Of a stretch of DNA of 48,518 nt, positions 1 to 12,343 are shown piece after piece; within the stretch, counting starts at the first letter, position 1, and each line of letters begins with the position of its first letter. The stretch is from Myxococcota bacterium (GTDB taxonomy: Bacteria; Myxococcota_A; Polyangia; Polyangiales; Sandaracinaceae), in the NCBI GenBank assembly GCA_036149055.1, contig JAYZQJ010000230.1, forward strand, positions 1 through 48,518. The letters run 5' to 3'. The notes below the pieces were generated by a model, which did no database searches, was not told where the DNA came from, and saw only the letters and a list, made by a program, of their open reading frames with translations. The translations under genes were made by a program, and so were the position numbers.

Positions 1-563
1 CCCCCGTGCCCCTGCCCGTGCCCGTGCCCCTGCCCGAGTCGCCCATCGAAATGGAGACCGAGCCCGAGACCGAAACCGAAACCGAGTCCGAGTCCGAGTC
101 CGAGTCCGAGTCCGAGTCCGAGTCCGAGACCGAAACCGAGCCCGAGCCCGAGCCCGAGCCCGAGTCCGAGTCCGAGTCCGAGCCCGCTCCCCTCGTCTCC
201 GCCGAGCAGGCGATGGCCGTGGCCGACGAGGCGCGGCGGGAGGGGCGGGAGAGGGAGGCGGCTTCGATCCTCGAGCGAGCGAGCCAGCTGCGGGGCGACC
301 CGGCGGCCGGGCTGGCGGCGTTCACGCTCGGGCGGCTCGAGCTGGATCGGCTGAACCGCCCGGCGCGGGCGGCGCGGGCGTTCTCCCGGGCCCTCGACCT
401 GAGCCTGCCGCCGCGGCTGCGCGAGGACGCGGCGGCCCGGCTGGTGGACGCGCACGTGGCGGCGGGGGACGAGCGCGCGGCCGCGCTCGCCGCGAACTTC
501 TACCTGCGCGACTACCCCAACGGCCGACACCGCGCGCGGGTCCGGCCCCACGCCGGGCCCTGA
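1..563 (+). CDS. Partial (5' end outside window) protein with Pro/Glu/Ser linker and C-terminal TPR-like helical domain; resembles C-termini of myxobacterial FecR-like anti-sigma factors
   Basis: Frame open from window start; (ES/ET/EP)n linker, then AAFTLGRLELD...EDAAARLVDAH...YLRDYPNG TPR-like motifs; stop overlaps next ATG (TGATG). Confidence 0.6.
   Translation, partial: PVPLPVPVPLPESPIEMETEPETETETESESESESESESESETETEPEPEPEPESESESEPAPLVSAEQAMAVADEARREGREREAASILERASQLRGDPAAGLAAFTLGRLELDRLNRPARAARAFSRALDLSLPPRLREDAAARLVDAHVAAGDERAAALAANFYLRDYPNGRHRARVRPHAGP
54..186 (+). repeat. Hexamer microsatellite (GAGTCC/GAGCCC/GAAACC)n encoding ES/EP/ET repeats
   Basis: About 22 tandem hexamers seen directly. 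Confidence 0.9.
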
Positions 564-1693
564 TGCGACGCCTCGTCGCGCTCGCCGCCGCGCTGTCGTT
601 CGCCGCCGCGCTCGCCTCGCCGGCGGCGGCGCAGTCCGTCGAGCTCACCGACCCGGCCTGCGACGCGCTCCCCATCGACCGCGCGGCGACCCGCGGCATC
701 CTCGCGCTCGAGCTCGAGGTGGACGGCTGGCGACTGGTCGAGGCCGACGCCGACGCCTCGCTCTCCTGGGCCCCCGAGCGCTGCGCCGCCGGCGCGACCC
801 GCTACCGCCTCGCGCTCCGCGACCCCGACGGCCGAGTGCGAGAGGCCACCGTCGACCTCGCCGCGGTCCCCCTCGGCGCGCTCCCCCGCGCCCTGGCCCT
901 CGAGCTCGTCGGCCTCCTCCAGGAGCGCCCGCCGCCGCCGAGCCCCGCCTCGGACACGGTCTCGGACCCGGACCCGGCTTCGGACTCGGCTTCGGACTCG
1001 GACTCGGACTCGGACTCGGCGTCGGACTCGGTCTCGGACCCGGCTTCGGACTCGGCTTCGGACTCGGACTCGGACTCGGACTCGGACTCGGACCCGGACC
1101 CGGACCCGGACTCGGCTGCGGACTCGGACCCGGCTTCGGACTCGGCTCCCGACGACGACACCGAGCGATCGCAAAGCCCCCTCTGGTCCATCGAGGGCAC
1201 CCTCCGCAACACCCCGGACACCGGCGCCCTGCTCAGCGGCCTCCGCCTCGCGCTCGAGCTGGCGGTGCTCGGCGACCTCTTCGGCGCCGACCTCCCGCTC
1301 CGGCTCCGGCTCGACGTCGGCGGCACCGGCGGGCCGGCGTCGCATCAGGTGTCCCTCGCGTCCGTCGAAGGCGGCGTGACGCTCGCGATCCGGGCCACCG
1401 CCGCTCGAGAGGTCGCCGTGCGCTTCGGCCCGCGCCTCTGGCTCGGCTACGGCTGGGTGCTCTCCCTGCCGCCGCCCCCACGGGTCACCTCGTTGGCTCC
1501 GCGGACCGAGGGCATGCTGCTCGGGCTGGGGCTGTCGGTGGGGATCGACGTCGAGGTGGCTCCCGGCTTCGAGCTCCGGCTCGGGGGAGAGGTGGGCACC
1601 AACCTGGAAGGCCTGCCGCAGGGCACCCCGGCCGGCACGACCGGGTTCCTCGGCGCCTACTGGGGCCTCGATCTCGGCGTCGGCTTCCGCTGA
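563..1693 (+). CDS. Secreted hypothetical protein with Ser-Asp repeat linker and probable C-terminal beta-barrel-like region
   Basis: Signal peptide (MRRLVALAAALSFAAALASPAAAQ), SD-rich linker, alternating hydrophobic strands ending WGLDLGVGFR; translationally coupled to upstream ORF. Confidence 0.7.
   Translation: MRRLVALAAALSFAAALASPAAAQSVELTDPACDALPIDRAATRGILALELEVDGWRLVEADADASLSWAPERCAAGATRYRLALRDPDGRVREATVDLAAVPLGALPRALALELVGLLQERPPPPSPASDTVSDPDPASDSASDSDSDSDSASDSVSDPASDSASDSDSDSDSDSDPDPDPDSAADSDPASDSAPDDDTERSQSPLWSIEGTLRNTPDTGALLSGLRLALELAVLGDLFGADLPLRLRLDVGGTGGPASHQVSLASVEGGVTLAIRATAAREVAVRFGPRLWLGYGWVLSLPPPPRVTSLAPRTEGMLLGLGLSVGIDVEVAPGFELRLGGEVGTNLEGLPQGTPAGTTGFLGAYWGLDLGVGFR
950..1147 (+). 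repeat. Hexamer microsatellite (GACTCG/GCTTCG/GACCCG)n encoding SD/SA/PD repeats
   Basis: Seen directly. Confidence 0.9.
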
Positions 1694-1706
1694 ATCGGCC
1701 GTCGCC

Positions 1707-1761
1707 TTGACACGCTCGCCGTCGAGACGTACGCATGCCGCGAAACTGAGAATCAGAGTCA
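1707..1761 (+). promoter_or_regulatory. Putative sigma70 -35 (TTGACA, 1707-1712) and Fur-box-like operator (1742-1760)
   Basis: GAAACTGAGAATCAGAGTC matches the E. coli Fur consensus GATAATGATAATCATTATC at 13/19 in a very GC-rich background, directly upstream of imelysin/TonB-receptor genes; -10 is weak. Confidence 0.55.
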
Positions 1762-1783
1762 TACTTACTTCGAGGTCTCACGA

Positions 1784-3313
1784 ATGCGTTCCCTCTCCGT
1801 TCTCTGCGCCCTGAGCGCGCTCACCCTGGTGGCCTGCGACGACGGCGACCCGGATCCCGTCGACTCGGGCGTCGCCGACACCGGCGTCGTGTCCGAAGAC
1901 GCCGACGTCATGGACGAGGACTCCGGCACCGACGTGGACGCCGGCCCGGGCGAGCTGGTCGTGCCCGACACCTACGCCTTCGAGAGCCGCTTCAGCGCCG
2001 GCGAGAGCAGCATTCGCCACACCGGTCAGACCGCGCGGCACCTCCTCATCAGCGACCTGAAGGACTACGTCGGCGGCCTCACCGCCGAGGTCGACGGCGG
2101 CTTCTCGCCCGCCGCCGACGGCGACGTCACCGCGCGCCTCGAGTACTTCTTCAGCCTCGACGGGGGCGACCGCGCCGACGACCCGTTCCGGCTGAGCACC
2201 GACCCGGCCGCCCTGCAGTCGACCTACGGCGACATCTCGAGCGCCAACCTGATCGACAAGGTCGCCGGCAACGACAGCTCCACCGACCACCGCGACTGGT
2301 CGACCGAGTTCGCCGGCTGGAGCGACGCCTCGATCGCGGCCCACGGCGGCGGGATCGACAGCCCGACCAACCTCGTGCGCGCCTTCTTCGAGACCCTCGA
2401 GGAGAACGCGATCGACCGCGCGGCCGGCCGTGACCGGCTCAGCCCCGCGCTCCAGCCGCTCCCCGTGCACGTGACCGAGAGCGGCCTCGACCTGCAGCAG
2501 CTCACCGAGAAGTTTCTCCTCGGCGCGCTCGCCTTCTCGCAGGCCGCGGACGACTACACGGACGACGACACCGACGGAAAGGGCCTGCTCGTCGACAACA
2601 CCATGCCGGCCTCGGATGGCGCGCCATACACCGCGCTCGAGCACGTGTGGGACGAGGCGTGGGGCTACTACGGCGCCGCCTCCTCCTACGGCTCCTGGAC
2701 CGCCGAGAGCCTCTCGAGCGGCCCGCGCTACATGGACACCAGCGGCGACGGCGCGATCGACCTCGGCACCGAGTACAACTGGGGCGCCTCGGTCAACGCG
2801 GCCAAGCGCGACAACGGCGCCAACGTGGCCACCGACTTCATGGGCCAGTCGTTCCTCGCGTTCCGCACCGGCCGCGCGATGATCGCGCACTACGGCGAGC
2901 TCGACGCGGACGAGCGCGCGGCGCTCACCGAGCAGCGTGACCTCGCGATCCAGGCCTGGGAGCAGGCGATCGCGGCGACGGTCGTGCACTACATCAACGA
3001 CACCCTGCAGGCGATGGGCGACTTCGGGACCGCGGCGTATGATCACGACCGCTTCCTCGACCACGCCAAGGCCTGGTCGGAGATGAAGGGCTTCGCGCTG
3101 ATGTTCCAGTTCAACCCCCGCTCGCCGCTGACCCGCGAGCAGTTCGTGCAGCTCCACACCCTCATGGGCGACGCGCCGGTGCTCCCGGCCGCCGGCCCGC
3201 TGGCCGCGGACGAGTACCGCGAGAACCTGCGCGCGGCGCGCACCCTCCTCGGTGACGCCTACGGCTTCGCCGCCGAGAACCTCGGCGACGACGCCGGCGA
3301 GAACGGGTGGTGA
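1784..3313 (+). CDS. DUF4856-family lipoprotein (imelysin-related, metal-uptake associated)
   Basis: Lipobox LVAC; motifs HTGQTAR, LQQLTEKFLLGA, EHVWDEAWGYYG, HAKAWSEMKGF; context. Confidence 0.8.
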   Translation: MRSLSVLCALSALTLVACDDGDPDPVDSGVADTGVVSEDADVMDEDSGTDVDAGPGELVVPDTYAFESRFSAGESSIRHTGQTARHLLISDLKDYVGGLTAEVDGGFSPAADGDVTARLEYFFSLDGGDRADDPFRLSTDPAALQSTYGDISSANLIDKVAGNDSSTDHRDWSTEFAGWSDASIAAHGGGIDSPTNLVRAFFETLEENAIDRAAGRDRLSPALQPLPVHVTESGLDLQQLTEKFLLGALAFSQAADDYTDDDTDGKGLLVDNTMPASDGAPYTALEHVWDEAWGYYGAASSYGSWTAESLSSGPRYMDTSGDGAIDLGTEYNWGASVNAAKRDNGANVATDFMGQSFLAFRTGRAMIAHYGELDADERAALTEQRDLAIQAWEQAIAATVVHYINDTLQAMGDFGTAAYDHDRFLDHAKAWSEMKGFALMFQFNPRSPLTREQFVQLHTLMGDAPVLPAAGPLAADEYRENLRAARTLLGDAYGFAAENLGDDAGENGW

Positions 3314-3317
3314 GCCG

Positions 3318-4544
3318 ATGACGCCGCGCACCTCCCGCTCGCTGGTGGTCTTCTTCTCCGTGCTCGCGTGCTTCGTCGGCTGTGACGGCGGCGACGCGCC
3401 GGTCGACGCGTCCAGCGCGGGCGACGGCGGCTCGGAGGATCCGTCCGCCCTGCGGCGCGAGGTGCTCGGCGCCCTGGGCGAGAACGTCATCCTCCCGGCC
3501 TTGCGCGACTTCGCCGAGCAGGCGGAGGCGCTCGAGGCCGCGACCGCCGCCTACGCCGCCGACCCTTCGGCCGACAACCGCGCCGCGGCCCAGGCCGCAT
3601 GGCGTGACGCCGCCGCCTCCTGGCAGCAGGCGGAGCTGATGCAGGTCGGCCCCGCCGGCATGAGCGGCACCGGCTGCGGCGTGGTGGGCGCGATGGAGCT
3701 CCGGGACGAGATCTACTCCTGGAACCTCACCAGCACCTGCCGCATCGACCAGGAGACCGTGGCCGACGCCCACGCCGACACCGCGCTGCTCGACGCCGAG
3801 CTGGTGAACGTCCGCGGCCTCGACGCGATGGAGTACCTCCTCTTCGTCGAGACCGACGACAACACCTGCGGCGCGCTCTCGCCGATCAACGACGAGGGCA
3901 CCTGGGAGGCGGAGCGGGCCAACATCGGCCAGCGCCGCGCGACCTACGCCCACACCGCCGCGCAGCTCATCCTCGAGGAGGCGCGCGGGCTCCGCGACGC
4001 GTGGGAGCCGAGCGGCGGCGACTTCCTCGCCGACTGGCGCGGCGCCGGCACCGACGGCTCCGTTTACGACAGCTCGCAGCGCGCGCTCGACGACCTCGCG
4101 ACCGCGATGCTCTACCTCGACACGGCGACCCGCGACATGAAGGTGGGCGACCCGGCGGGCATCACCTGCATGGACGCCAGCTGCATCGACTCCCTCGAGA
4201 CGCCGTGGGCCAACCACGACAAGCAGGCCATCCTCGCCAACCTCGACGCCTTCGGGCGCCTCTTCCACGGGGAGTCGCCGGACGCGATGGGGCTCGGGAT
4301 CGACGACCTCCTGCTCGCGGTCGGCGCGGACACCCTGGTGGCGGATCTGAGCGCCGCCCTCGCCGCCGCGGTCACCGCGGTGGAGGCCATCCCGGGCACG
4401 CTGCGCGAGGCCATCGAGGCCGACGCGCCCGAGATCACGACCGCCTACGATGCGCTGGGCACCGCGCAGCGGCTCTTCAAGGTGGACGTGGTGACGGCGC
4501 TCGACATCGACGTGCAGTCCTGCACCCCGGGTGACAACGACTGA
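3318..4544 (+). CDS. Imelysin-family lipoprotein
   Basis: ATG at 3318, lipobox FVGC; AQAAWRDAAASWQQAE and NVRGLDAMEYLLF (GxxxxE) motifs. Confidence 0.85.
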   Translation: MTPRTSRSLVVFFSVLACFVGCDGGDAPVDASSAGDGGSEDPSALRREVLGALGENVILPALRDFAEQAEALEAATAAYAADPSADNRAAAQAAWRDAAASWQQAELMQVGPAGMSGTGCGVVGAMELRDEIYSWNLTSTCRIDQETVADAHADTALLDAELVNVRGLDAMEYLLFVETDDNTCGALSPINDEGTWEAERANIGQRRATYAHTAAQLILEEARGLRDAWEPSGGDFLADWRGAGTDGSVYDSSQRALDDLATAMLYLDTATRDMKVGDPAGITCMDASCIDSLETPWANHDKQAILANLDAFGRLFHGESPDAMGLGIDDLLLAVGADTLVADLSAALAAAVTAVEAIPGTLREAIEADAPEITTAYDALGTAQRLFKVDVVTALDIDVQSCTPGDND

Positions 4545-4546
4545 CG

Positions 4547-5914
4547 ATGCGCGACCTGCGGGCGCGCCTGAACGACCCTCGCGACGCCGCCTCCGTGGCG
4601 GCGTTTCGCGTGATGTTCGGGCTCGTGATCGCGGGCGGGGTGATCCGCTACTTCGCGAGCGGCTGGATCGATCGCTTCTACGTCCAGCCCACCTTCCACT
4701 TCCACTACCTCGGGTTCGAGTGGGTGCGGCCCCTGCCCGAGCCGTGGATGAGCGCCGCCTTCGGGCTGCTCGGCGTCGCCGGGCTCTGCGTGGCGCTCGG
4801 GCTCTTCTACCGGGTCGCGTCGGCGCTGGTGCTGGTGGTGTTCACCTATCTGCACCTCATCGACGTGACCAACTACCTGAACCACTACTGGTTGGTCACG
4901 CTCCTCGCGGCGCTCTTCTGCCTGCTGCCGCTGAACGGGACGTGGTCCCTCGACGCCCGCCTGCGCCCCTCGCTGCGCCGGAGCACGGTGCCGGCGTGGG
5001 TGCTCTACCTGCTGCGCTTCCAGGTGGGGCTCGTCTACGTCTTCGCTGCCCTCGCCAAGATCGGGCCCGACTGGCTCCTGCACGGTCAGCCGCTCGGGAT
5101 CTGGCTGCACGCGCGCACCGAGACGCCGGTGATCGGGCCGCTGCTCGGCCAGCCCTGGGTGGCGCTGGCGATGAGCTGGGCGGGGCTCTTCTACGACCTG
5201 ACCATCGTCTTCTGGCTCAGCTGGCGCCGGAGCCGCCCCTTCGCCTTCGCCGCGGTGTGCTTCTTCCACGGCCTCACCGGCTACTTCTTCTTCATCGGCA
5301 TCTTCCCGGTGATCATGACCGCCGCCGCGACGCTGTTCTTCGCGCCCGACTGGCCCCGCAAGCTGCACGCGCGGCTGCGGCGGGTGGACCTCGAGCCCGA
5401 CGACCGGAGCCGGATCGGCCGCGCGGGGATGGCCGCCCTGGCGGTCTGGGGGCTGGTGATGGTGGCGGTGCCGCTCCGCGGTCACCTCTACGGCGGCGAC
5501 GTGCTCTGGCACGAGCAGGGCATGCGCTGGAGCTGGCGGGTGAAGGTCCGCGAGAAGAACGGCGACGTGACCTATCGGGTGCGCCTCGACGGCGAGCGCC
5601 GCGAGCGGGAGGTGCGCCCGAGCCGCTACCTCGACGGCCGGCAGGAGGCGGAGTTCGCGGGCCAGCCCGACCTCATCCTCCAGCTGGCCCATCACATCCG
5701 CGACGAGCTCCGCGCCCGAGGCCACACCCGGGTCGAGGTCCGGGCCGACGCCTGGGCCTCGCTCAACGGCCGCCCCTCGGCGCGCCTGATCGATCCGACG
5801 GTCGATCTGGCGGCCGTCGAGGACGGCTTCGCGCCCGCCGACTGGATCCTCCCCCGCCCCGACACCCGACCTCTCCCCATGCGCCGGCGCCGCCCGGCGG
5901 TCGCCCGCCACTGA
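4547..5914 (+). CDS. HTTM-domain, vitamin K-dependent gamma-carboxylase-like membrane protein
   Basis: SVAAFRVMFG, YLNHYWL, VYVFAALAKIGPDWL, FIGIFP, WSWRVKVREK, QPDLILQLAHHI, ASLNGRP motifs; multiple TM helices. Confidence 0.88.
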   Translation: MRDLRARLNDPRDAASVAAFRVMFGLVIAGGVIRYFASGWIDRFYVQPTFHFHYLGFEWVRPLPEPWMSAAFGLLGVAGLCVALGLFYRVASALVLVVFTYLHLIDVTNYLNHYWLVTLLAALFCLLPLNGTWSLDARLRPSLRRSTVPAWVLYLLRFQVGLVYVFAALAKIGPDWLLHGQPLGIWLHARTETPVIGPLLGQPWVALAMSWAGLFYDLTIVFWLSWRRSRPFAFAAVCFFHGLTGYFFFIGIFPVIMTAAATLFFAPDWPRKLHARLRRVDLEPDDRSRIGRAGMAALAVWGLVMVAVPLRGHLYGGDVLWHEQGMRWSWRVKVREKNGDVTYRVRLDGERREREVRPSRYLDGRQEAEFAGQPDLILQLAHHIRDELRARGHTRVEVRADAWASLNGRPSARLIDPTVDLAAVEDGFAPADWILPRPDTRPLPMRRRRPAVARH

Positions 5915-5933
5915 CCTGCCACCGAGGAGCGCC

Positions 5934-8600
5934 ATGACGAAGAGCTTGCGTCCGCCCCACGCGCGGGCATGTTGCGCCCCCGTGCGCGCCTTCGCCTCGA
6001 TCGTGCTCGTCCTCCTGGCCGTCGCCGCCCCCGCCGCGGCGCAGGACGCCGGCTCCCCCGACGCGGGCGTGCCCGACGCCGGCTCCCCCGACGCCGGCTC
6101 CCCCGACGCTGGCTCCCCCGGCGCCGCCCCGCCCGACGCCGGCCCCCCGGCGCCCCAGGACGCGGACGCGGCCCCGGCCCCGGACTCGGACTCGGACTCG
6201 GCTTCGGACTCGGCTTCGGACTCGGCTTCGGACTCGGCTTCGGACTCGGCTTCGGACTCGGCTTCGGACTCGGCTTCGGACCCGGACTCGGCTTCGGACT
6301 CGGCTTCGGACTCGGCTTCGGACCCGGACTCCGACCCGGCGACGGACGACCTCGTGCTCAGCGACGACGACGTCCTCCTCAGCGACGACGACGTGCTCGT
6401 CGATCCCGACCTCGACGACGTCGTCGAGTCCGAGGAGGACCTCACCGTCCCCGACGTCGTCGTCACCGCGCCCGCCATCGACCGGACCGAGCAGGAGCCC
6501 ACCGGCGGCGCCGTGCAGCGGCTCGACGAGGAGCAGCTGGAGCGCTTCTCCTACGACAACCCGGACGCGGTCGTGCAGCAGGTGCCCGGCGCGTACGTGC
6601 GCCAGGAGGACGGCTTCGGGCTGCGCCCGAACATCGGCCTGCGCGGCGTGAGCAGCGAGCGCTCCAGCCGGATCACGCTGATGGAGGACGGCGTCCTCTT
6701 CGGCCCCGCGCCCTACGCCGCGCCGGCCGCCTACTACTTCCCGCTGATGCTGCGCATGACCGGCGTCGACGTCTACATGGGCGCGGCGACCATCCCCTTC
6801 GGCCCCACCACCGTCGGCGGCGCGATCGACCTCCACAACCGCCCGATCCCGCGGGAGGCGACCGGCGGCCTGGACCTCGCGGTCGGCCTCTACAACTACG
6901 GCCGGGCGCACGCGTGGGCGGGCGCGAGCAACGACTGGGGCGGCTTCGCGGTGGAGGGCGTGTTCCTCCGGACCGACGGCTTCAAGACCCTCCAGGGCCT
7001 CCAGCGCCCGCCCGACACCGGCTTCGACCGCGGCGAGCTCCTGCTCCGCGGCGAGCTGCGCGGCGCCCTCGGCGACAACGCCTACCAGCGCCTCGAGCTG
7101 CGCTTCGGCTTCAGCGCCGAGGGCAGCAGCGAGAGCTACCTCGGGCTGACCGACGCCGACTTCCAGGCCGACCCCTACCAGCGCTACTTCGCGTCCCAGC
7201 TCGACCGCATGGAGTGGTGGCGCACCCAGGTGCAGCTCCGGCACACGCTCGAGGTGGGCGACGACTTCGTGCTCCGGAGCACCGCGTACCGGCACGACCT
7301 CGACCGCAACTGGTTCAAGGTCAACGCGATGGGCGGCCTCCCGCGGGAGGGCGGCGGGCAGACCCGGACCGAGCTGTTCGACGTGCTCATCAACCCGAGC
7401 GGCGGCAACGCCGTCCTGGTCGCGATCCTCCGGGGCGAGGAGGACGGGGAGCTCGGCCCGGCCTCCGACGACTACGTGCTCATCGGCAACAACGGCCGCG
7501 TCTTCGGCAGCACCGGCGTCCAGACCGAGGGCGTCGGCACCTTCGAGACCGGGCCCCTCTCGCACCGCGTGCGCATCGGCGCGCGCCTGCACCACGACGA
7601 CGTGCGCCGGCACCACACCGAGCGCGCGTACGGGGTGGCCGGCGGCGACCTGATCGAGGTGACCGACCAGCCCTACACGCTCCTCCGCAGCCAGGCCCAG
7701 GCGCTGGCGTTCAGCGCGCACGCCGCGTGGTCGGTCGAGCTCTGGGACGCGGTCACCGTCACCCCGGGCGTGCGCACCGAGCTCATCTGGACGAGCTACG
7801 ACGACGTCGAGGGGGGGACCTCCTCGTCGGCGTTCCGGGCCGCGGTGCTGCCGGGCGCGGGCATCGAGTGGGCCATCCTCGAGGAGCTGGCCGTCTTCGG
7901 CGGGGTGATGCGCGGGTTCGCGCCGGTGGCGCCCGGTCAGGCCGAGAACGTGCAGCCCGAGGACAGCGTGCTCTACGAGGCGGGCCTCCGGGCGTCGCAC
8001 GAAGAGACCGGGCTCGGCGGCCAGATCACCGGCTTCGTGAACGACTACTCCCGGTTCCTCCAGCGCTGCTCCTTCGCGGCCGGCTGCGCCGACATGGACC
8101 TGGACCTGGAGTCCAACGGCGGCCGCCCGATCGTGGCCGGGCTCGACGTGCGCCTCGGCGCGAACATCCGCGCGGGCGAGGTCCGGGTGCCGCTGCGCGC
8201 GACCTACACGTTCACCTACAGCGAGCTCCGCGAGGCGGTCGGCGACTCGCCGAGCCCGCTCTACGCCGGCGGTCAGCCCGGCGACCGGCTGCCCTACATC
8301 CCCGAGCACCAGATCTCGGCGCAGGCCGGCCTCGAGCACGACGACATCGGCCTCAACGTCTCGGCCAGCTGGGTCAGCGAGATGTGGGAGCAGGTGGCGG
8401 CGCCGGGCGACGAGCTGCCCCGGACCGACGCCTACTTCGTGCTCGACGCGACGGTCTACGTCGGCCTGCTGGAGCACCTCCGGCTCTACGTGCGCGGCGA
8501 GAACCTGACCTTCAGCCAGGCCGTCGCCTCGCGTCGCCCCTTCGGCGCGCGCCCGGTCCGCCCCTTCCAGATCCAGGGCGGCCTCAAAGTGGAATTCTGA
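5934..8600 (+). CDS. TonB-dependent receptor, FecA-like, with long acidic N-terminal extension
   Basis: Plug motifs YVRQEDGFGLRPNIGLRG, LMEDGVLFGPAPYAAPAAYYFP, GPTTVGGAI; C-terminal ENLT...GGLKVEF ending in Phe. Confidence 0.92.
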   Translation: MTKSLRPPHARACCAPVRAFASIVLVLLAVAAPAAAQDAGSPDAGVPDAGSPDAGSPDAGSPGAAPPDAGPPAPQDADAAPAPDSDSDSASDSASDSASDSASDSASDSASDSASDPDSASDSASDSASDPDSDPATDDLVLSDDDVLLSDDDVLVDPDLDDVVESEEDLTVPDVVVTAPAIDRTEQEPTGGAVQRLDEEQLERFSYDNPDAVVQQVPGAYVRQEDGFGLRPNIGLRGVSSERSSRITLMEDGVLFGPAPYAAPAAYYFPLMLRMTGVDVYMGAATIPFGPTTVGGAIDLHNRPIPREATGGLDLAVGLYNYGRAHAWAGASNDWGGFAVEGVFLRTDGFKTLQGLQRPPDTGFDRGELLLRGELRGALGDNAYQRLELRFGFSAEGSSESYLGLTDADFQADPYQRYFASQLDRMEWWRTQVQLRHTLEVGDDFVLRSTAYRHDLDRNWFKVNAMGGLPREGGGQTRTELFDVLINPSGGNAVLVAILRGEEDGELGPASDDYVLIGNNGRVFGSTGVQTEGVGTFETGPLSHRVRIGARLHHDDVRRHHTERAYGVAGGDLIEVTDQPYTLLRSQAQALAFSAHAAWSVELWDAVTVTPGVRTELIWTSYDDVEGGTSSSAFRAAVLPGAGIEWAILEELAVFGGVMRGFAPVAPGQAENVQPEDSVLYEAGLRASHEETGLGGQITGFVNDYSRFLQRCSFAAGCADMDLDLESNGGRPIVAGLDVRLGANIRAGEVRVPLRATYTFTYSELREAVGDSPSPLYAGGQPGDRLPYIPEHQISAQAGLEHDDIGLNVSASWVSEMWEQVAAPGDELPRTDAYFVLDATVYVGLLEHLRLYVRGENLTFSQAVASRRPFGARPVRPFQIQGGLKVEF
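6045..6340 (+). repeat. 15-bp (DAGSP)n repeat followed by 12/6-bp (DSAS/DS)n repeat within the receptor N-terminus
   Basis: GACGCCGGCTCCCCC units, then GACTCGGCTTCG units, seen directly. Confidence 0.9.
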
Positions 8601-8615
8601 GCCTATGTCGGTGCG

Positions 8616-9467
8616 GTGAGTCTCTCTCTGCTCGGGCTCGGGGTCGCGCTCGGGGGCGCGGCCTGCTGGGCCGGGCTCGACGCGACGCGCAAGGCGCTCG
8701 TCCGCGACGTCCCGCCGGCCGCCGCCGCGATGTGGCTGAGCCTCGGGCAGACCCCGTTCTTCGCCCTCGCGCTCCTCTTCGAGGCCGAGCTGTCGGCCGG
8801 CTACTGGCTGCCCGGCCTCTCGGCGCTCGGGCTGCAGGTGATCGCGAACCTGCTCTTCATGAAGGCCGTCCAGGTCTCGCCGCTGAGCGCGACCATCCCC
8901 TTCCTCTCGTTCACGCCGGTGTTCACCTCGCTGCTCGCGATCCCGGCCCTCGGGGAGCTGCCGAGCGGCTGGCAGTGGGGCGGCATCGGCCTCGTGGTGG
9001 TCGGGGCGCTCGCCCTGCACGCCCGGGGCGACGCGCCGCTCTGGCGTCGCCTCGAGACCGGCTCGGCGCTGATGGTCGGGGTCTCGGCCTGCTGGGCGTT
9101 CACCGCCAACCTCGACAAGCTCGCCCTCGAGCACGCGTCCGAGCCCGTGCACGCGCTCGTGCAGACCGCCGGCGTCGGCCTGGCGCTCCTGGGTTGGCTC
9201 CTCGCCCGGCGCGCGTCGATCGCCGTCCCGCGTCGCGCCCGCTGGCCGCTGGCCGCCTCCATCGCCTTCGGCGCCGGCGCCCTCGCGCTTCAGCTCTGGG
9301 CCATCCAGCTCCTCTTCGTCGGCATCGTGGAGACGATCAAGCGCGCGGTCGGCATGACCTCCTCGGTGCTCGTCGGCCGCGTCGCGTTCGACGAGCCCCT
9401 CGGCGTCGGCAAGCTCGTCGCCGTCGCGATCATGATGGCCGGGACGATCGCGGTCGTCCTGGGCTGA
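8616..9467 (+). CDS. EamA/DMT family transporter
   Basis: About 10 TM helices in two halves; AVQVSPLSATIPFLSFTPVF, LGELPS, FDEPLG motifs. Confidence 0.88.
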   Translation: MSLSLLGLGVALGGAACWAGLDATRKALVRDVPPAAAAMWLSLGQTPFFALALLFEAELSAGYWLPGLSALGLQVIANLLFMKAVQVSPLSATIPFLSFTPVFTSLLAIPALGELPSGWQWGGIGLVVVGALALHARGDAPLWRRLETGSALMVGVSACWAFTANLDKLALEHASEPVHALVQTAGVGLALLGWLLARRASIAVPRRARWPLAASIAFGAGALALQLWAIQLLFVGIVETIKRAVGMTSSVLVGRVAFDEPLGVGKLVAVAIMMAGTIAVVLG

Positions 9468-9482
9468 GCTCCCTCGCGACCT

Positions 9483-9902
9483 TCAGCCGACGAGGCGCTC
9501 CAGGGCGGGCGGCGCGACGCGGCGCTCGAAGGCGGCGGCCTGGGCGGCGCGGGCGAGGATGGCGCAGAGGGTGCGCCGCTCGAGGGGCTTCACGTGGACC
9601 TCGGCGAAGAGCGCGCGGTCGGCTTCGGTGGGGCGCTCGTCCGGCTCCACGAGCAGCACGAGGCGCGGGCAGCGGTCGCCGAGCCTGCGCTTCAGGGCCC
9701 GGGCCACCTGGGCGCCGCTCGCGTGGGCCATGCGGCTCGCGAGCACCACCGCCTCGGGCCGGCGCTTCGGGACCTGCTCGAGCGCCTCGAGCGGGCTCGT
9801 GTAGAGATAGACACGCGCTTCGTCTTCGAAGGCGGGGGCCATCGACCGCAGCCAGTGGGCCTGGTCGTCCACGAACACGACACATCGGCGAGGCAGCTTC
9901 AT
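9483..9902 (-). CDS. Stand-alone receiver-domain protein, atypical (phospho-acceptor Asp apparently absent)
   Basis: VFVDDQ acidic pair, SPLEAL, PEAVVLASRM (A where D is expected), SGAQVA, VKPL. Confidence 0.7.
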   Translation of the reverse strand: MKLPRRCVVFVDDQAHWLRSMAPAFEDEARVYLYTSPLEALEQVPKRRPEAVVLASRMAHASGAQVARALKRRLGDRCPRLVLLVEPDERPTEADRALFAEVHVKPLERRTLCAILARAAQAAAFERRVAPPALERLVG

Positions 9903-10084
9903 CTCGTGTCGACGACTGTGCAGAAACCGTGCTCAGCGACGGAGCCGGGAGGGACGGGGCGGAAGCTGCGCCATCCTTGCGTCAGGTGGGGCACGCCGCG
10001 TCATGGATGTCGCGCACCGTCGGGTCTCTGGCGGCCACCGTCGCCTCTTGACACAGGGGAGATCGGGCACTGAGTGTCGGCCAT

Positions 10085-12343
10085 ATGGCCAAAGACGAGG
10101 TGATGCTCCAGGTGGCCGCGGCCACCAACCAGGACGTGGGCAAGGGCGTCGCCCGGCTCAGCAAGCGGGCGATGGAGGCGCTGGGCCTCCGGGGCGGCGA
10201 GGTCATCGAGGTCGAGGGGAAGCGGCGGAGCGCCGCCCTCGCGCTGCCGCCCTACGAGGAGGACGCGGGCCTCGACATCATCCGCCTCGACGGGCTCGAA
10301 CGGCACAACGCCGGCGTCGGCATCAGCGATCGGGTCGCCGTGCGGAAGGCCGACGCCAAGCCGGCGCGCAAGGTCGTGCTCGCGCCGGCCCAGGACAACG
10401 TCCGGCTGAGCGGCCCCGGCGAGGCGCTGAAGCCGACCCTGATCGGCCGCCCGCTCTCGCCGGGCAGCGTCATCTCGACCAGCGTCTACCGCCGCGCGCC
10501 GGGCATGAACGGGGGCCCGTTCCCCAACGACGTCATGAACGCGCTCTACGCGCAGCGCGCCTACGGCCTGCAGGAGATCCGGCTCGTGGTGGTGTCCGCC
10601 GCGCCGACCGGGGTCGTGCGCGTCACGCCCGAGACCGAGATCGAGCTCCGCGCCGAGCACACCGAGCCCGAGGAGAAGGTGCTCGACGTCACCTACGACG
10701 ACGTCGGCGGCATCAGCCACACCCTCGACGAGGTGCGGGAGATGATCGAGCTCCCGCTGAAGCACCCGGAGCTCTTCCAGCGCCTCGGCATCGACCCGCC
10801 GAAGGGGGTGCTGCTCTACGGCCCGCCCGGGACCGGCAAGACCCTCCTGGCGCGCGCGGTGGCCAACGAGTCCGACGCGCACTTCATCTCGGTGGCCGGC
10901 CCCGAGATCATGGGCAAGCTCGTCGGCGAGTCCGAGGAGCGGCTCCGGCAGATCTTCGAGGAGGCGGAGCAGAACGCGCCGAGCATCATCTTCTTCGACG
11001 AGATCGACTCGATCGCGCCGAAGCGCGACGAGGTCACGGGGGAGGGCGAGAAGCGGCTCGTGGCGCAGCTGCTGACCCTGATGGACGGCCTGAAGCCGCG
11101 GCAGAACGTGGTGGTCATCGGCGCGACCAACCGCCCCGACGCGATCGACGAGGCGCTGCGCCGCCCCGGCCGCTTCGACCGCGAGCTGACCATCGGCGTC
11201 CCCGACAAGGACGGCCGGCGAGAGGTCTTGCAGATCCACACCCGCGGCATGCCGCTCGCCGACGACGTCGAGCTCGACCGACTCGCCCAGATGACCTACG
11301 GCTTCGTCGGCGCCGACCTCGCCGCGCTCTGCCGGGAGGCGGCGCTCGAGTCGCTGCGCCGGGTGCTGCCCGAGATCGACCTCGAGGCCGACGAGATCCC
11401 GGAGGAGGCGCTCCAGAAGCTGATCGTGCGGGGCGGCGACTTCGACTCCGCCATCCGGCGCGTGCAGCCGACCGCGCTCCGCGAGATCATGATCCAGACC
11501 CCCAACGTCTCCTGGGACGACGTCGGCGGGCTCGACGAGGCCAAGGAGGCGCTCCGGGAGGGCATCGAGCTGCCGCTCAAGCGCCCCGACGCGTTCACCC
11601 GCATGGGCATCCGCCCGGCGAAGGGCTTCCTGCTCTACGGCCCGCCCGGCACCGGCAAGACGCTGCTCGCCAAGGCGTGCGCGCGGGAGGCGGAGGCGAA
11701 CTTCATCTCGATGCGCTCGAGCGACCTGCTCAGCAAGTGGTACGGCGAGTCCGAGAAGCAGGTGGCGCGCCTCTTCCAGCGCGCGCGGCAGGTGGCGCCC
11801 ACCGTCATCTTCCTCGACGAGATCGACTCCCTCGTCCCGCGCCGCGGCGGCGGCCTCGGCGAGCCGGCGGTCACCGAGCGGGTGGTCAACACGATCCTCG
11901 CCGAGATGGACGGCCTCGAGGAGCTGAAGGGCGTGGTGGTGGTGGGCGCGACCAACCAGCCGACCCTCATCGACCCGGCGCTGCTGCGCCCCGGCCGCTT
12001 CGACGAGCTGATCTACGTGCCGGTGCCGAGCGAGAAGGGGCGCCTGAAGATCCTGAAGATCCACACCCACGGCATGCCGCTCGCCGCCGGGGTCGACCTC
12101 GCGTCGCTCGCGAAGCGCACCGAGGGCTACACGGGCGCCGACCTCGAGGACCTCGTGCGCCGCGCCGGCCTGATCGCCCTGCGTCACGACCTCGAGGTCA
12201 GCGACGTGCCGATGCCCATCTTCGAGGAGGCGCTGAAGCAGACCCGCGCCTCGGTCACCGAGGAGATGGACGCGAGCTATCGCAAGATGGCCGAGGACCT
12301 GAGACACGAGCGCCCGGCGGAGGCCAAGCGCATCGGGTTCTGA
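10085..12343 (+). CDS. cdc48: CDC48/VCP/VAT-family double-ring AAA+ ATPase
   Basis: CDC48 N-domain ([23 protein letters not shown]), two Walker A GPPGTGKT, Walker B FFDEID/FLDEID, two RPGRFD motifs. Confidence 0.93.

Follow-up and report, generated by a model that had tools for sequence, protein, structure and literature searches.

A GGCX-like membrane enzyme in a conserved imelysin cassette of Myxococcota and Bacteroidota with a probable role in iron acquisition

Introduction

Imelysins have long been tied to iron uptake without a known ligand, and the gene cassette described here joins that question to the one posed by bacterial homologs of GGCX, a gamma-carboxylase that depends on vitamin K. 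The cassette lies in a 48,518 bp stretch of DNA from a Myxococcota bacterium of the Sandaracinaceae (GenBank assembly GCA_036149055.1, contig JAYZQJ010000230.1, positions 1 to 48,518; referred to as the window), and it encodes a DUF4856 lipoprotein, an imelysin lipoprotein, a GGCX-like enzyme with an HTTM domain, and a TonB-dependent receptor. Among the closest described operons are PA4370-PA4373 and VC1264-VC1267, which, in the available text of the report (PMC3143127), share with it an imelysin of the IPPA/PA4372 type with a GxxxxE motif and a DGD end, as well as iron/Fur control; the present cassette differs in having DUF4856 in place of the first imelysin and DHOR, and HTTM in place of DUF1513. 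The words 'carboxylase' and 'desaturase' are absent from that text. A further relative is RAYM_09779-09794 of Riemerella anatipestifer, where genes for a receptor, a carboxylase, an imelysin and a hypothetical protein are consecutive and iron/Fur-regulated (PMC5609570); RAYM_09794 (annotated as hypothetical) is matched to DUF4856 by position only, and the available sections of that paper list the carboxylase gene without discussing the enzyme or its mechanism.

The enzyme resembles human GGCX (PDB 9BVQ, 9L21) in its HTTM and lumenal domains, its fold (template modelling (TM) score about 0.8 by query) and its catalytic and pocket residues, and it differs in its apparently iron-regulated bacterial context, in not being linked to VKOR, and in that none of the five proteins of the operon shows a Gla domain in a Pfam scan. 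Conservation of GGCX residues in bacteria has already been noted in the parts of the literature covered. The sole bacterial GGCX homolog with a substrate named there is MloH of Streptomyces, which carboxylates an Asp residue in malonomycin biosynthesis (PMC12186529, partial text). The likeness to MloH, which is drawn from its description and not from its sequence, is that of a bacterial GGCX homolog turning Asp into a malonate group; MloH differs in acting on a non-ribosomal peptide synthetase/polyketide synthase intermediate in an antibiotic cluster, and no such conserved genes are seen here. GGCX-like domains outside animals are also present in the VKOR/vitamin K epoxidase/sterol desaturase modules of giant viruses (PMC13486548), which are desaturase-linked, and in DUF5819-HTTM pairs (bioRxiv 10.64898/2026.08.19.745780). 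Neither has an iron-uptake context in the parts of these reports covered, and the viral proteins are without the segment for carboxylation that the cassette enzyme retains, and adjoin the desaturase or are fused to it instead of being exchanged with it. A redox enzyme that creates a metal site on the partner encoded beside it is known in MbnH, which modifies MbnP (Trp to kynurenine) to make a copper site (PMC11951088, partial text); the proteins, chemistry and metal are unrelated to those here, where the modification is hypothetical.

A literature search, with subscription journals mostly outside its coverage, returned no description of the cassette as a system, of the imelysin tail or of the enzyme swap reported below, and 0 papers each for 'HTTM' with 'imelysin' and for 'DUF4856'. 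The parts belong to known families, and the cassette is a variant of Fur-regulated imelysin operons with a potentially new modification chemistry.

Results

Organization and conservation of the cassette

Five forward-strand open reading frames (ORFs; 1784–3313, 3318–4544, 4547–5914, 5934–8600 and 8616–9467) are separated by only 4, 2, 19 and 15 bp, in agreement with the five co-oriented genes of the initial annotation, which had been made from the sequence alone. A Pfam profile search recovered all of its domain labels, with DUF4856 (E 1.4e-11) in the first product (509 aa, lipobox Cys18), Peptidase_M75/imelysin (E 1.8e-31) in the second (408 aa), HTTM (E 5.3e-83) together with VKGC_lumenal_dom (E 1.9e-39) in the third (455 aa), a TonB barrel and plug in the fourth (888 aa, extended at the N-terminus by a low-complexity Asp/Ser/Ala stretch) and EamA in the fifth (283 aa). 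The receptor had been called FecA-like; the barrel and plug are there, but the NCBIfam FecA model scores 59 bits against a cut-off of 1100, and the FecA label is loose.

The first four of these genes form a conserved unit. A scan of species-representative genomes provided 77 loci with relatives of the HTTM enzyme, of which the closest named are from Sandaracinaceae (67–70% identity). Many of the loci are short, and tblastn recovered the imelysin in 57, the receptor in 61, DUF4856 in 34 and EamA in 2; where there is enough flank, the imelysin adjoins HTTM in 56 of 62 loci and the receptor is downstream in 53 of 68. Of 40 informative loci, only one, that of the closest relative, has EamA directly after the receptor, and in one other locus EamA is on the opposite strand. 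From this census of neighbouring genes the unit consists of the DUF4856 lipoprotein, the imelysin lipoprotein, the GGCX-like HTTM enzyme and the TonB-dependent receptor, and the co-oriented EamA gene is a local addition, not the member or product exporter that had been suggested.

The same neighbourhood is present outside the phylum. HTTM matches occur in 43 of 201 Bacteroidota genomes, drawn evenly from the phylum of a Saprospiraceae locus, and an imelysin lies within 500 bp upstream of 38 of the 39 best hits versus 0 of the 13 weaker ones (a rank cut set after the ranking had been viewed). DUF4856 is 1–2.5 kb upstream of HTTM in 29 of the 30 Bacteroidota genomes having DUF4856, and the gene after HTTM has TonB-receptor domains in all 14 loci scanned. 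The expectation of a conserved HTTM/imelysin/TonB neighbourhood is thus borne out in both Myxococcota and Bacteroidota, with many bacteria of sea and soil among the carriers. An alternative layout, imelysin-DHOR-imelysin-HTTM, is found in Chondrinema, in Persicobacter and on another contig of the genome from which the window comes, where a second cassette (C137:28701-33599) has two Fur-like boxes, an imelysin, DHOR, a DGD-tailed imelysin and HTTM; this is the PA4370-73 layout with HTTM at the DUF1513 position. Since both sit in one operon, DHOR and HTTM are not substitutes for each other. Bacterial GGCX homologs as a whole are common, with 3467 out of 8000 candidates scoring E 0.001 or better. 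In one Bacteroidota genome feoB comes next after a non-cassette HTTM paralog (L139:7796-11529).

Iron regulation

A Fur-box-like site matching 13 of 19 positions, as the initial annotation had it, lies at 1742–1760 (forward strand) and is overlapped by a 12/19 site at 1748. It is separated by 23 bases from the first start codon, and no other site in the window has 13 or more matches. The 9.9-Mb genome contains 54 sites at ≥13/19 of the 19-bp Fur consensus, and the box is therefore credited through its position and its conservation in relatives, not through its score alone. In the 250 bp around the DUF4856 start a site of ≥13/19 is present in 28 of 32 related loci, and the mean best score in these 32 relatives is 13.8 versus 9.8 in shuffles (20 per region), with a shuffle reaching ≥13 in 6 of 32 regions and with near-duplicate loci in the set. 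The initial annotation also placed the genes behind TTGACA; this −35-like hexamer is present (1707–1712, forward strand), but no consensus −10 was found downstream of it, and a search of positions 1–11000 for sigma-70-type promoters gave 0 sites.

The orthologous Riemerella genes are induced when iron is withdrawn: RNA-seq ratios in the wild type (WT-Fe/WT+Fe) are 2.41, 3.07, 2.64 and 2.11 for RAYM_09794, RAYM_09789, RAYM_09784 and RAYM_09779, annotated as hypothetical, imelysin, 'vitamin K-dependent gamma-carboxylase' and TonB receptor, respectively (PMC5609570 Table 4, available text). Of the proposed iron/Fur control, the boxes in relatives and the iron induction in Riemerella speak for the iron response, while Fur dependence in Riemerella is less than complete (see Discussion). 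By analogy with the boxes of relatives and the Riemerella data, the copy in the window is likely to be iron-regulated as well, and the four genes very probably constitute a Fur-repressed outer-membrane iron-acquisition cassette. Further AT-rich Fur-like sites in the same genome (C76:10559-10583, C133:80761, C133:81032, C169:10744, C149:76872 and C279:40314) probably belong to the same regulon.

The GGCX-like enzyme

The third gene (4547–5914, forward strand) encodes a near-complete GGCX homolog that goes beyond the membrane HTTM domain, as both the HTTM and the VKGC lumenal domains are present. A PDB sequence search gave eight hits, all of them GGCX (E about 2e-39), and an AlphaFold2 model (predicted local distance difference test score, pLDDT, 93.8) has GGCX structures alone among its matches below E 0.001 (16 hits), with TM scores by query mostly of 0.80–0.83 (0.68–0.79 for apo forms) and by target of 0.54–0.59.

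Residues N112, H113, K171, W176 and D217 of the enzyme correspond to human N159, H160, K218, W223 and D263, and F240, H241, F253 and W330 to F286, H287, F299 and W399. All 57 Myxococcota-set and all 33 Bacteroidota cassette proteins have the equivalents of N159, H160, K218, W223, D263, F286, H287 and F299, and that of W399 is kept in 89 of the 90; these counts exclude L053, L059, L064, L067 and L079, though each adjoins a tailed imelysin. The invariant set includes residues whose Ala mutants impair GGCX (PMC12647623, partial text). Both the quinol-activating set Lys218/Asp263/Trp223/Phe286 (here K171, D217, W176 and F240) and the carboxylate/CO2 pocket Asn159/His160/Phe299 (here N112, H113 and F253) are present in 90/90, and the prediction of an intact GGCX-type catalytic core holds in both residues and fold. 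The LL9 loop is basic, with Arg at the G396 position in 88/90 and Lys or Arg at the R406 position in 89/90. Residue 333 (window 5543–5545) is a Lys at the GGCX Met402 position, which is occupied by Met in 49 and by Lys in one of the 57 relatives of the Myxococcota set. By its fold and core residues the enzyme is vitamin K-dependent-carboxylase-like, and it stands outside the animal-type GGCX at clamp B and at Tyr395.

A Thr/Val pair at the human 290 and 401 positions (T290/V401) marks the cassette subfamily. All nine proteins of this type in the set of other HTTM proteins have a tailed imelysin either adjacent or elsewhere in the genome, and none of the nine N290-type paralogs has one adjacent. 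A third GGCX-like paralog in the same genome (C79:58168-59481) is of the N290/His395 type, lacks an imelysin and has a Ser/Thr kinase gene after it. Members of this subfamily occur by themselves in Bacteroidota and in Paracoccus as well, and their substrate may be a different one.

Basic loops (residues 127–149, 226–231 and 265–293) lie opposite the loops that carry N112/H113 and F253, and from GGCX homology and this charge distribution the active site is predicted to face the periplasm. MenB is above the cut-off in this genome, and the futalosine-pathway MqnA family was not found in it. VKOR has two hits in this genome and is present in 18 of 31 HTTM-cassette genomes versus 102 of 151 overall in a sample from its own phylum (described below), an absence of enrichment among genomes whose kin are not independent. 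With VKOR untied from the enzyme, low turnover (e.g. one modification per protein) would fit better than bulk chemistry.

The imelysin and its C-terminal tail

The imelysin (3318–4544, forward strand) has the features by which the IPPA/PA4372 family is defined in the available text of PMC3143127, i.e. an imelysin domain (PF09375), a GxxxxE motif without the His (G167-L-D-A-M-E172) and export (here as a lipoprotein, with Cys22). It ends in Asp406-Asn-Asp408, encoded at 4533–4541 (forward strand), and this C-terminal Asp-x-Asp, which is a feature noted in the present analysis and not a published criterion of the family, is shared by all 89 imelysins directly upstream of HTTM genes, taken without selection (DND 46, DGD 39, DTD 2, DDD 1, DSD 1). 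Out of 6212 putative ORFs in the genome, about 17 have such an end. It is missing from the remaining imelysins of these loci and from the imelysins of seven Bacteroidota genomes without a cassette-type HTTM. Four genomes have a solitary cassette-type HTTM (G174, G354-G356), and in each there is a tailed imelysin elsewhere in the genome.

We note that IPPA itself has an Asp-x-Asp end, as read from a cloning primer printed in PMC3143127, that its last six residues are disordered in the crystal, and that IPPA made in E. coli bound neither Fe3+, haem nor Zn (all from the text of that paper available). A tail specific to HTTM neighbours was considered and is ruled out by proteobacterial DGD imelysins without an adjacent HTTM. 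In a Sinorhizobium record (L158:6335-8671) corA comes after a DGD-tailed imelysin, whose immediate neighbours include neither DUF1513 nor HTTM.

An exchangeable enzyme slot

The sample of the organism's own phylum comprised 151 evenly drawn Myxococcota genomes, with 61 imelysin hits reaching through the tail. The gene in the slot beside them is HTTM in 39 and a hydroxylase-like member of PF04116 (the di-iron fatty-acid-hydroxylase/sterol-desaturase family) in 18; none has both, and of the four with neither, three are at contig ends and one has a hydroxylase elsewhere. Receptors are closely related between HTTM and hydroxylase cassettes (E about 1e-100 to 1e-160). In a tree of 47 imelysins (19 from HTTM and 19 from hydroxylase cassettes of the sample plus nine HTTM-type outgroups, with 20 further HTTM-adjacent ones omitted) the slot label changes five times. 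At least four of these changes are forced by well-supported branches, and the swap has therefore recurred.

Twelve of 19 cassette hydroxylases share a stop-free frame with the receptor (single ORFs in L209, L211, L213, L214, L216, L217, L219, L221, L222 and L224-L226), two are fused before the imelysin (L208, L210), four are standalone and adjacent, and one is remote. The inspected fusions have a signal-peptide-like segment after the last His box of the membrane enzyme, and from these sequences both kinds of fusion are likely cleaved polyproteins. We take the His boxes of the slot hydroxylase to lie on the cytoplasmic side, as is usual for the family, and the internal signal peptide after the boxes in the fusions is consistent with this.

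VKOR has a hit in 19 of 19 cassette-hydroxylase genomes versus 18 of 31 HTTM genomes, which may reflect lineage only; this co-presence echoes the viral link of VKOR with desaturase. A distant HTTM-like gene (L212:10743-11726, reverse strand; E 1e-18) lies ~1 kb past the receptor of one hydroxylase-type cassette and is oriented against it. DUF1513 was rejected as an alternative occupant of the slot in Myxococcota and Bacteroidota: it is over the cut-off in 0 of 201 Bacteroidota genomes and in 9 of 151 of the own-phylum sample, with an imelysin beside it in 0 of 9 loci within about 1.5 kb of flank. The hydroxylase query gave 0 of 201 Bacteroidota genomes at 1e-25, a result that does not amount to absence as there was no positive control in that phylum.

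The DUF4856 lipoprotein and neighbouring sequences

The DUF4856 lipoprotein (1784–3313, forward strand) has an all-helical model (pLDDT 96.9) and the conserved residues E286-H287-x-W289-D290-E291, Y258, K243, R364, Y403 and E433. Foldseek gave no hit below E 0.001 and the best VIA matches, to generic helical bundles, reach Z 8.2; there is no PDB sequence relative and no plasmid match. Its ESM Atlas neighbours annotated as Fea1 (feature scores 0.87 and 0.86) are a lead only, and together with the conserved E-H-x-W-D-E motif and the Tyr, Lys, Arg and Glu near it they hint that DUF4856 may be akin to the iron-binding algal Fea1; the Fea1 Pfam family PF07692 is hit by 0 of 46 DUF4856 members.

Three neighbouring proteins of the window contain long Glu/Ser or Asp/Ser/Ala repeats (ORFs 6–563 and 563–1693, and the extension of the receptor (5934–8600, forward strand) at ~6180–6340). 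ORF 6–563 may be the 3′ remainder of a gene truncated by the start of the contig, and neither it nor ORF 563–1693 has a Pfam family above cut-off. Several Bacteroidota receptors have a CarboxypepD_reg domain in place of the Asp/Ser/Ala N-terminal extension. Downstream of the EamA-family gene (8616–9467, forward strand) are a convergent gene for a receiver-like protein (9483–9902, reverse strand; below the Pfam cut-off) and one for a CDC48-type AAA ATPase (10085–12343, forward strand). Contigs from one seawater metatranscriptome run cover most of 1883–8914, which is not taken as proof of expression as DNA carry-over is possible; one contig spans DUF4856-imelysin-HTTM and another receptor-EamA, and a contig does not establish a single transcript.

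Discussion

The chemistry of GGCX functionalises the carbon next to a carboxylate and gives a malonate, and 2-hydroxylases of the PF04116 family give a hydroxy acid; malonate and hydroxy acid are both bidentate Fe(III) ligands. We infer a carboxylase activity, with its substrate, product and metal binding, along the following lines. The two lipoproteins (DUF4856 and the IPPA-type imelysin) would work with one family of TonB-dependent receptors, and an O2-dependent enzyme of the inner membrane, here the GGCX-like protein, would occupy the swappable slot. Lys171 would deprotonate menaquinol, and O2 would convert the menaquinol to a strong base and the epoxide. The base would then take a proton next to a carboxylate in the free Asp-x-Asp tail of the imelysin, and addition of CO2 would leave a malonate-type (carboxy-Asp) end that serves as a protein-bound Fe(III) ligand. 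Such an end could supply what the IPPA-type imelysin lacks (the His of GxHxxE), and the modified imelysin would hand iron to or from the receptor. With a hydroxylase in the slot a hydroxy-acid ligand would be the equivalent product, and the quinone enzyme would stand in for the hydroxylase without needing iron. The malonate-type ligand on a partner protein raised in the initial annotation hence acquires a concrete candidate in the Asp-x-Asp end and is still conjectural in its chemistry.

That the Asp tail is turned into an iron ligand by whichever O2-dependent enzyme occupies the swappable slot, here through menaquinol-driven carboxylation, is a tentative reading of these sequences, a serious possibility that stops short of being probable. 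It is put at that level because the enzymes alternate beside an acidic tail, because the malonate and hydroxy-acid chemistries converge on a ligand, and because of the MloH and MbnH/MbnP precedents. Several observations weigh against it, the main ones being the predicted opposite sides of the active sites, the occurrence of the tail without HTTM, the change at Tyr395 and the reported lack of carboxylation by a Leptospira ortholog. A shared protein substrate would have to be modified before export, since the hydroxylase site is probably cytoplasmic and the HTTM site is predicted to be periplasmic, and the occupation of the slot elsewhere by a di-iron hydroxylase-like enzyme or by DUF1513 complicates the idea of a carboxylated tail. 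All five proteobacterial second imelysins compared end in DGD without an adjacent HTTM, with DUF1513 next in four and CorA in one (Sinorhizobium), and the tail may thus bind iron or a partner unmodified, as it is conserved where HTTM does not adjoin. Tyr395, a ligand of the Glu carboxylate in GGCX, whose Ala mutant is impaired (PMC12647623, partial text), is replaced by M326 here, and the position is Met in 55 and Phe in two of the 57 Myxococcota-set proteins (Tyr in 29 and Phe in four of the 33 from Bacteroidota). N290 is replaced by Thr or Val (Thr here) and M401 by Val, and both clamp B and the C-terminal domain are absent, the alignment of the 455 aa protein stopping near human residue 505. 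No epoxide recycling is evident in the 13 of 31 HTTM-cassette genomes that have no VKOR hit. A Leptospira ortholog is said to be a vitamin K epoxidase without carboxylation, which our literature search did not confirm. Finally, the Riemerella cassette genes are still iron-responsive in the fur mutant (2.7–3.1), and delta-fur+Fe/WT+Fe ratios are just 1.36–1.93 (PMC5609570, available text), from which Fur control there is partial. The combined proposal of a Gla-like, menaquinol-dependent carboxylation of the imelysin Asp-x-Asp for iron uptake, with the same tail matured elsewhere by the hydroxylase or DUF1513, is no better than doubtful.

Other readings of the slot account for parts of the same evidence. 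The substrate of the enzyme might be a lipid of the membrane, the acyl chain of a lipoprotein or some small amphiphilic acid, which would receive a carboxyl (HTTM) or a hydroxyl or double bond (hydroxylase-like) next to a carbonyl, with the Asp tail working unmodified; the outcome would be a membrane-bound or released iron chelator, or remodelling of the envelope under iron starvation. The exchangeable partner family acts on acyl chains and sterols, HTTM and the hydroxylase are both integral to the membrane, a sterol desaturase is joined to a vitamin K epoxidase domain in giant viruses (PMC13486548, partial text), and the bacterial enzyme is without the protein-recognition clamp B of GGCX. We nonetheless consider this unlikely: no conserved biosynthetic or export gene was seen (EamA in 1 of 40 loci, other neighbours not having been surveyed systematically), the basic residues of the LL9 loop suit an acidic peptide, and bulk turnover would use up menaquinol in the 13 of 31 genomes without VKOR. 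The related suggestion that EamA belongs to the system and exports a small-molecule product draws on its co-oriented position 15 bp downstream of the receptor and on the RNA-library contig spanning both; it is largely refuted by the locus census and is extremely improbable.

A distinctly unlikely alternative is that the enzyme works solely as an epoxidase or quinol oxidase, with no coupling to carboxylation. Its redox chemistry, by oxidising a ligand or passing on electrons of the quinol pool, would release or re-speciate iron on the periplasmic side, and the di-iron enzyme, as well as the DHOR peroxidases in sister operons, would do a similar job. In its favour, a Leptospira ortholog is reported to be active as an epoxidase and inactive as a carboxylase. 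Viral homologs are argued to retain epoxidase activity alone (PMC13486548, partial text), Tyr395 is Met in the Myxococcota branch, and the sister operons do encode a di-haem peroxidase-like DHOR. Set against these are the N159/H160/F299 pocket, which is invariant in 90/90, and the retained LL9 loop, where the truncated viral epoxidases, by contrast, lack residues 374–418 (same source, partial text); continuous epoxidation would also drain menaquinone wherever VKOR has no hit (13 of 31). Highly unlikely, in our estimate, is a non-catalytic or sensory role, in which the membrane protein docks the acidic tail to receive iron at the inner membrane or senses the quinone redox state, DUF1513 perhaps docking it likewise in Proteobacteria and the tail itself being the ligand of iron or of a partner. 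It has in its favour that three unrelated folds occupy one slot beside the same tail, and that an inner-membrane iron acceptor is missing, as there is no permease among the conserved members; against it, the quinol-activating Lys/Asp/Trp and the CO2 pocket are completely conserved. We also know of no member of either slot enzyme family that transports iron.

If modification of the Asp tail by carboxylation is false, the three-way enzyme swap still narrows the roles of HTTM, the hydroxylase subfamily and DUF1513. If it is true, it would be a case of Gla-like protein carboxylation in bacteria, which our literature search did not find described, and a new iron-carrier route. Should the same tail also be matured by the hydroxylase and DUF1513 in other lineages, PA4372/VC1266-type proteins across Gram-negative bacteria would be iron carriers armed by post-translational modification, and the cassette could reflect an ancestral job of the clotting carboxylase.

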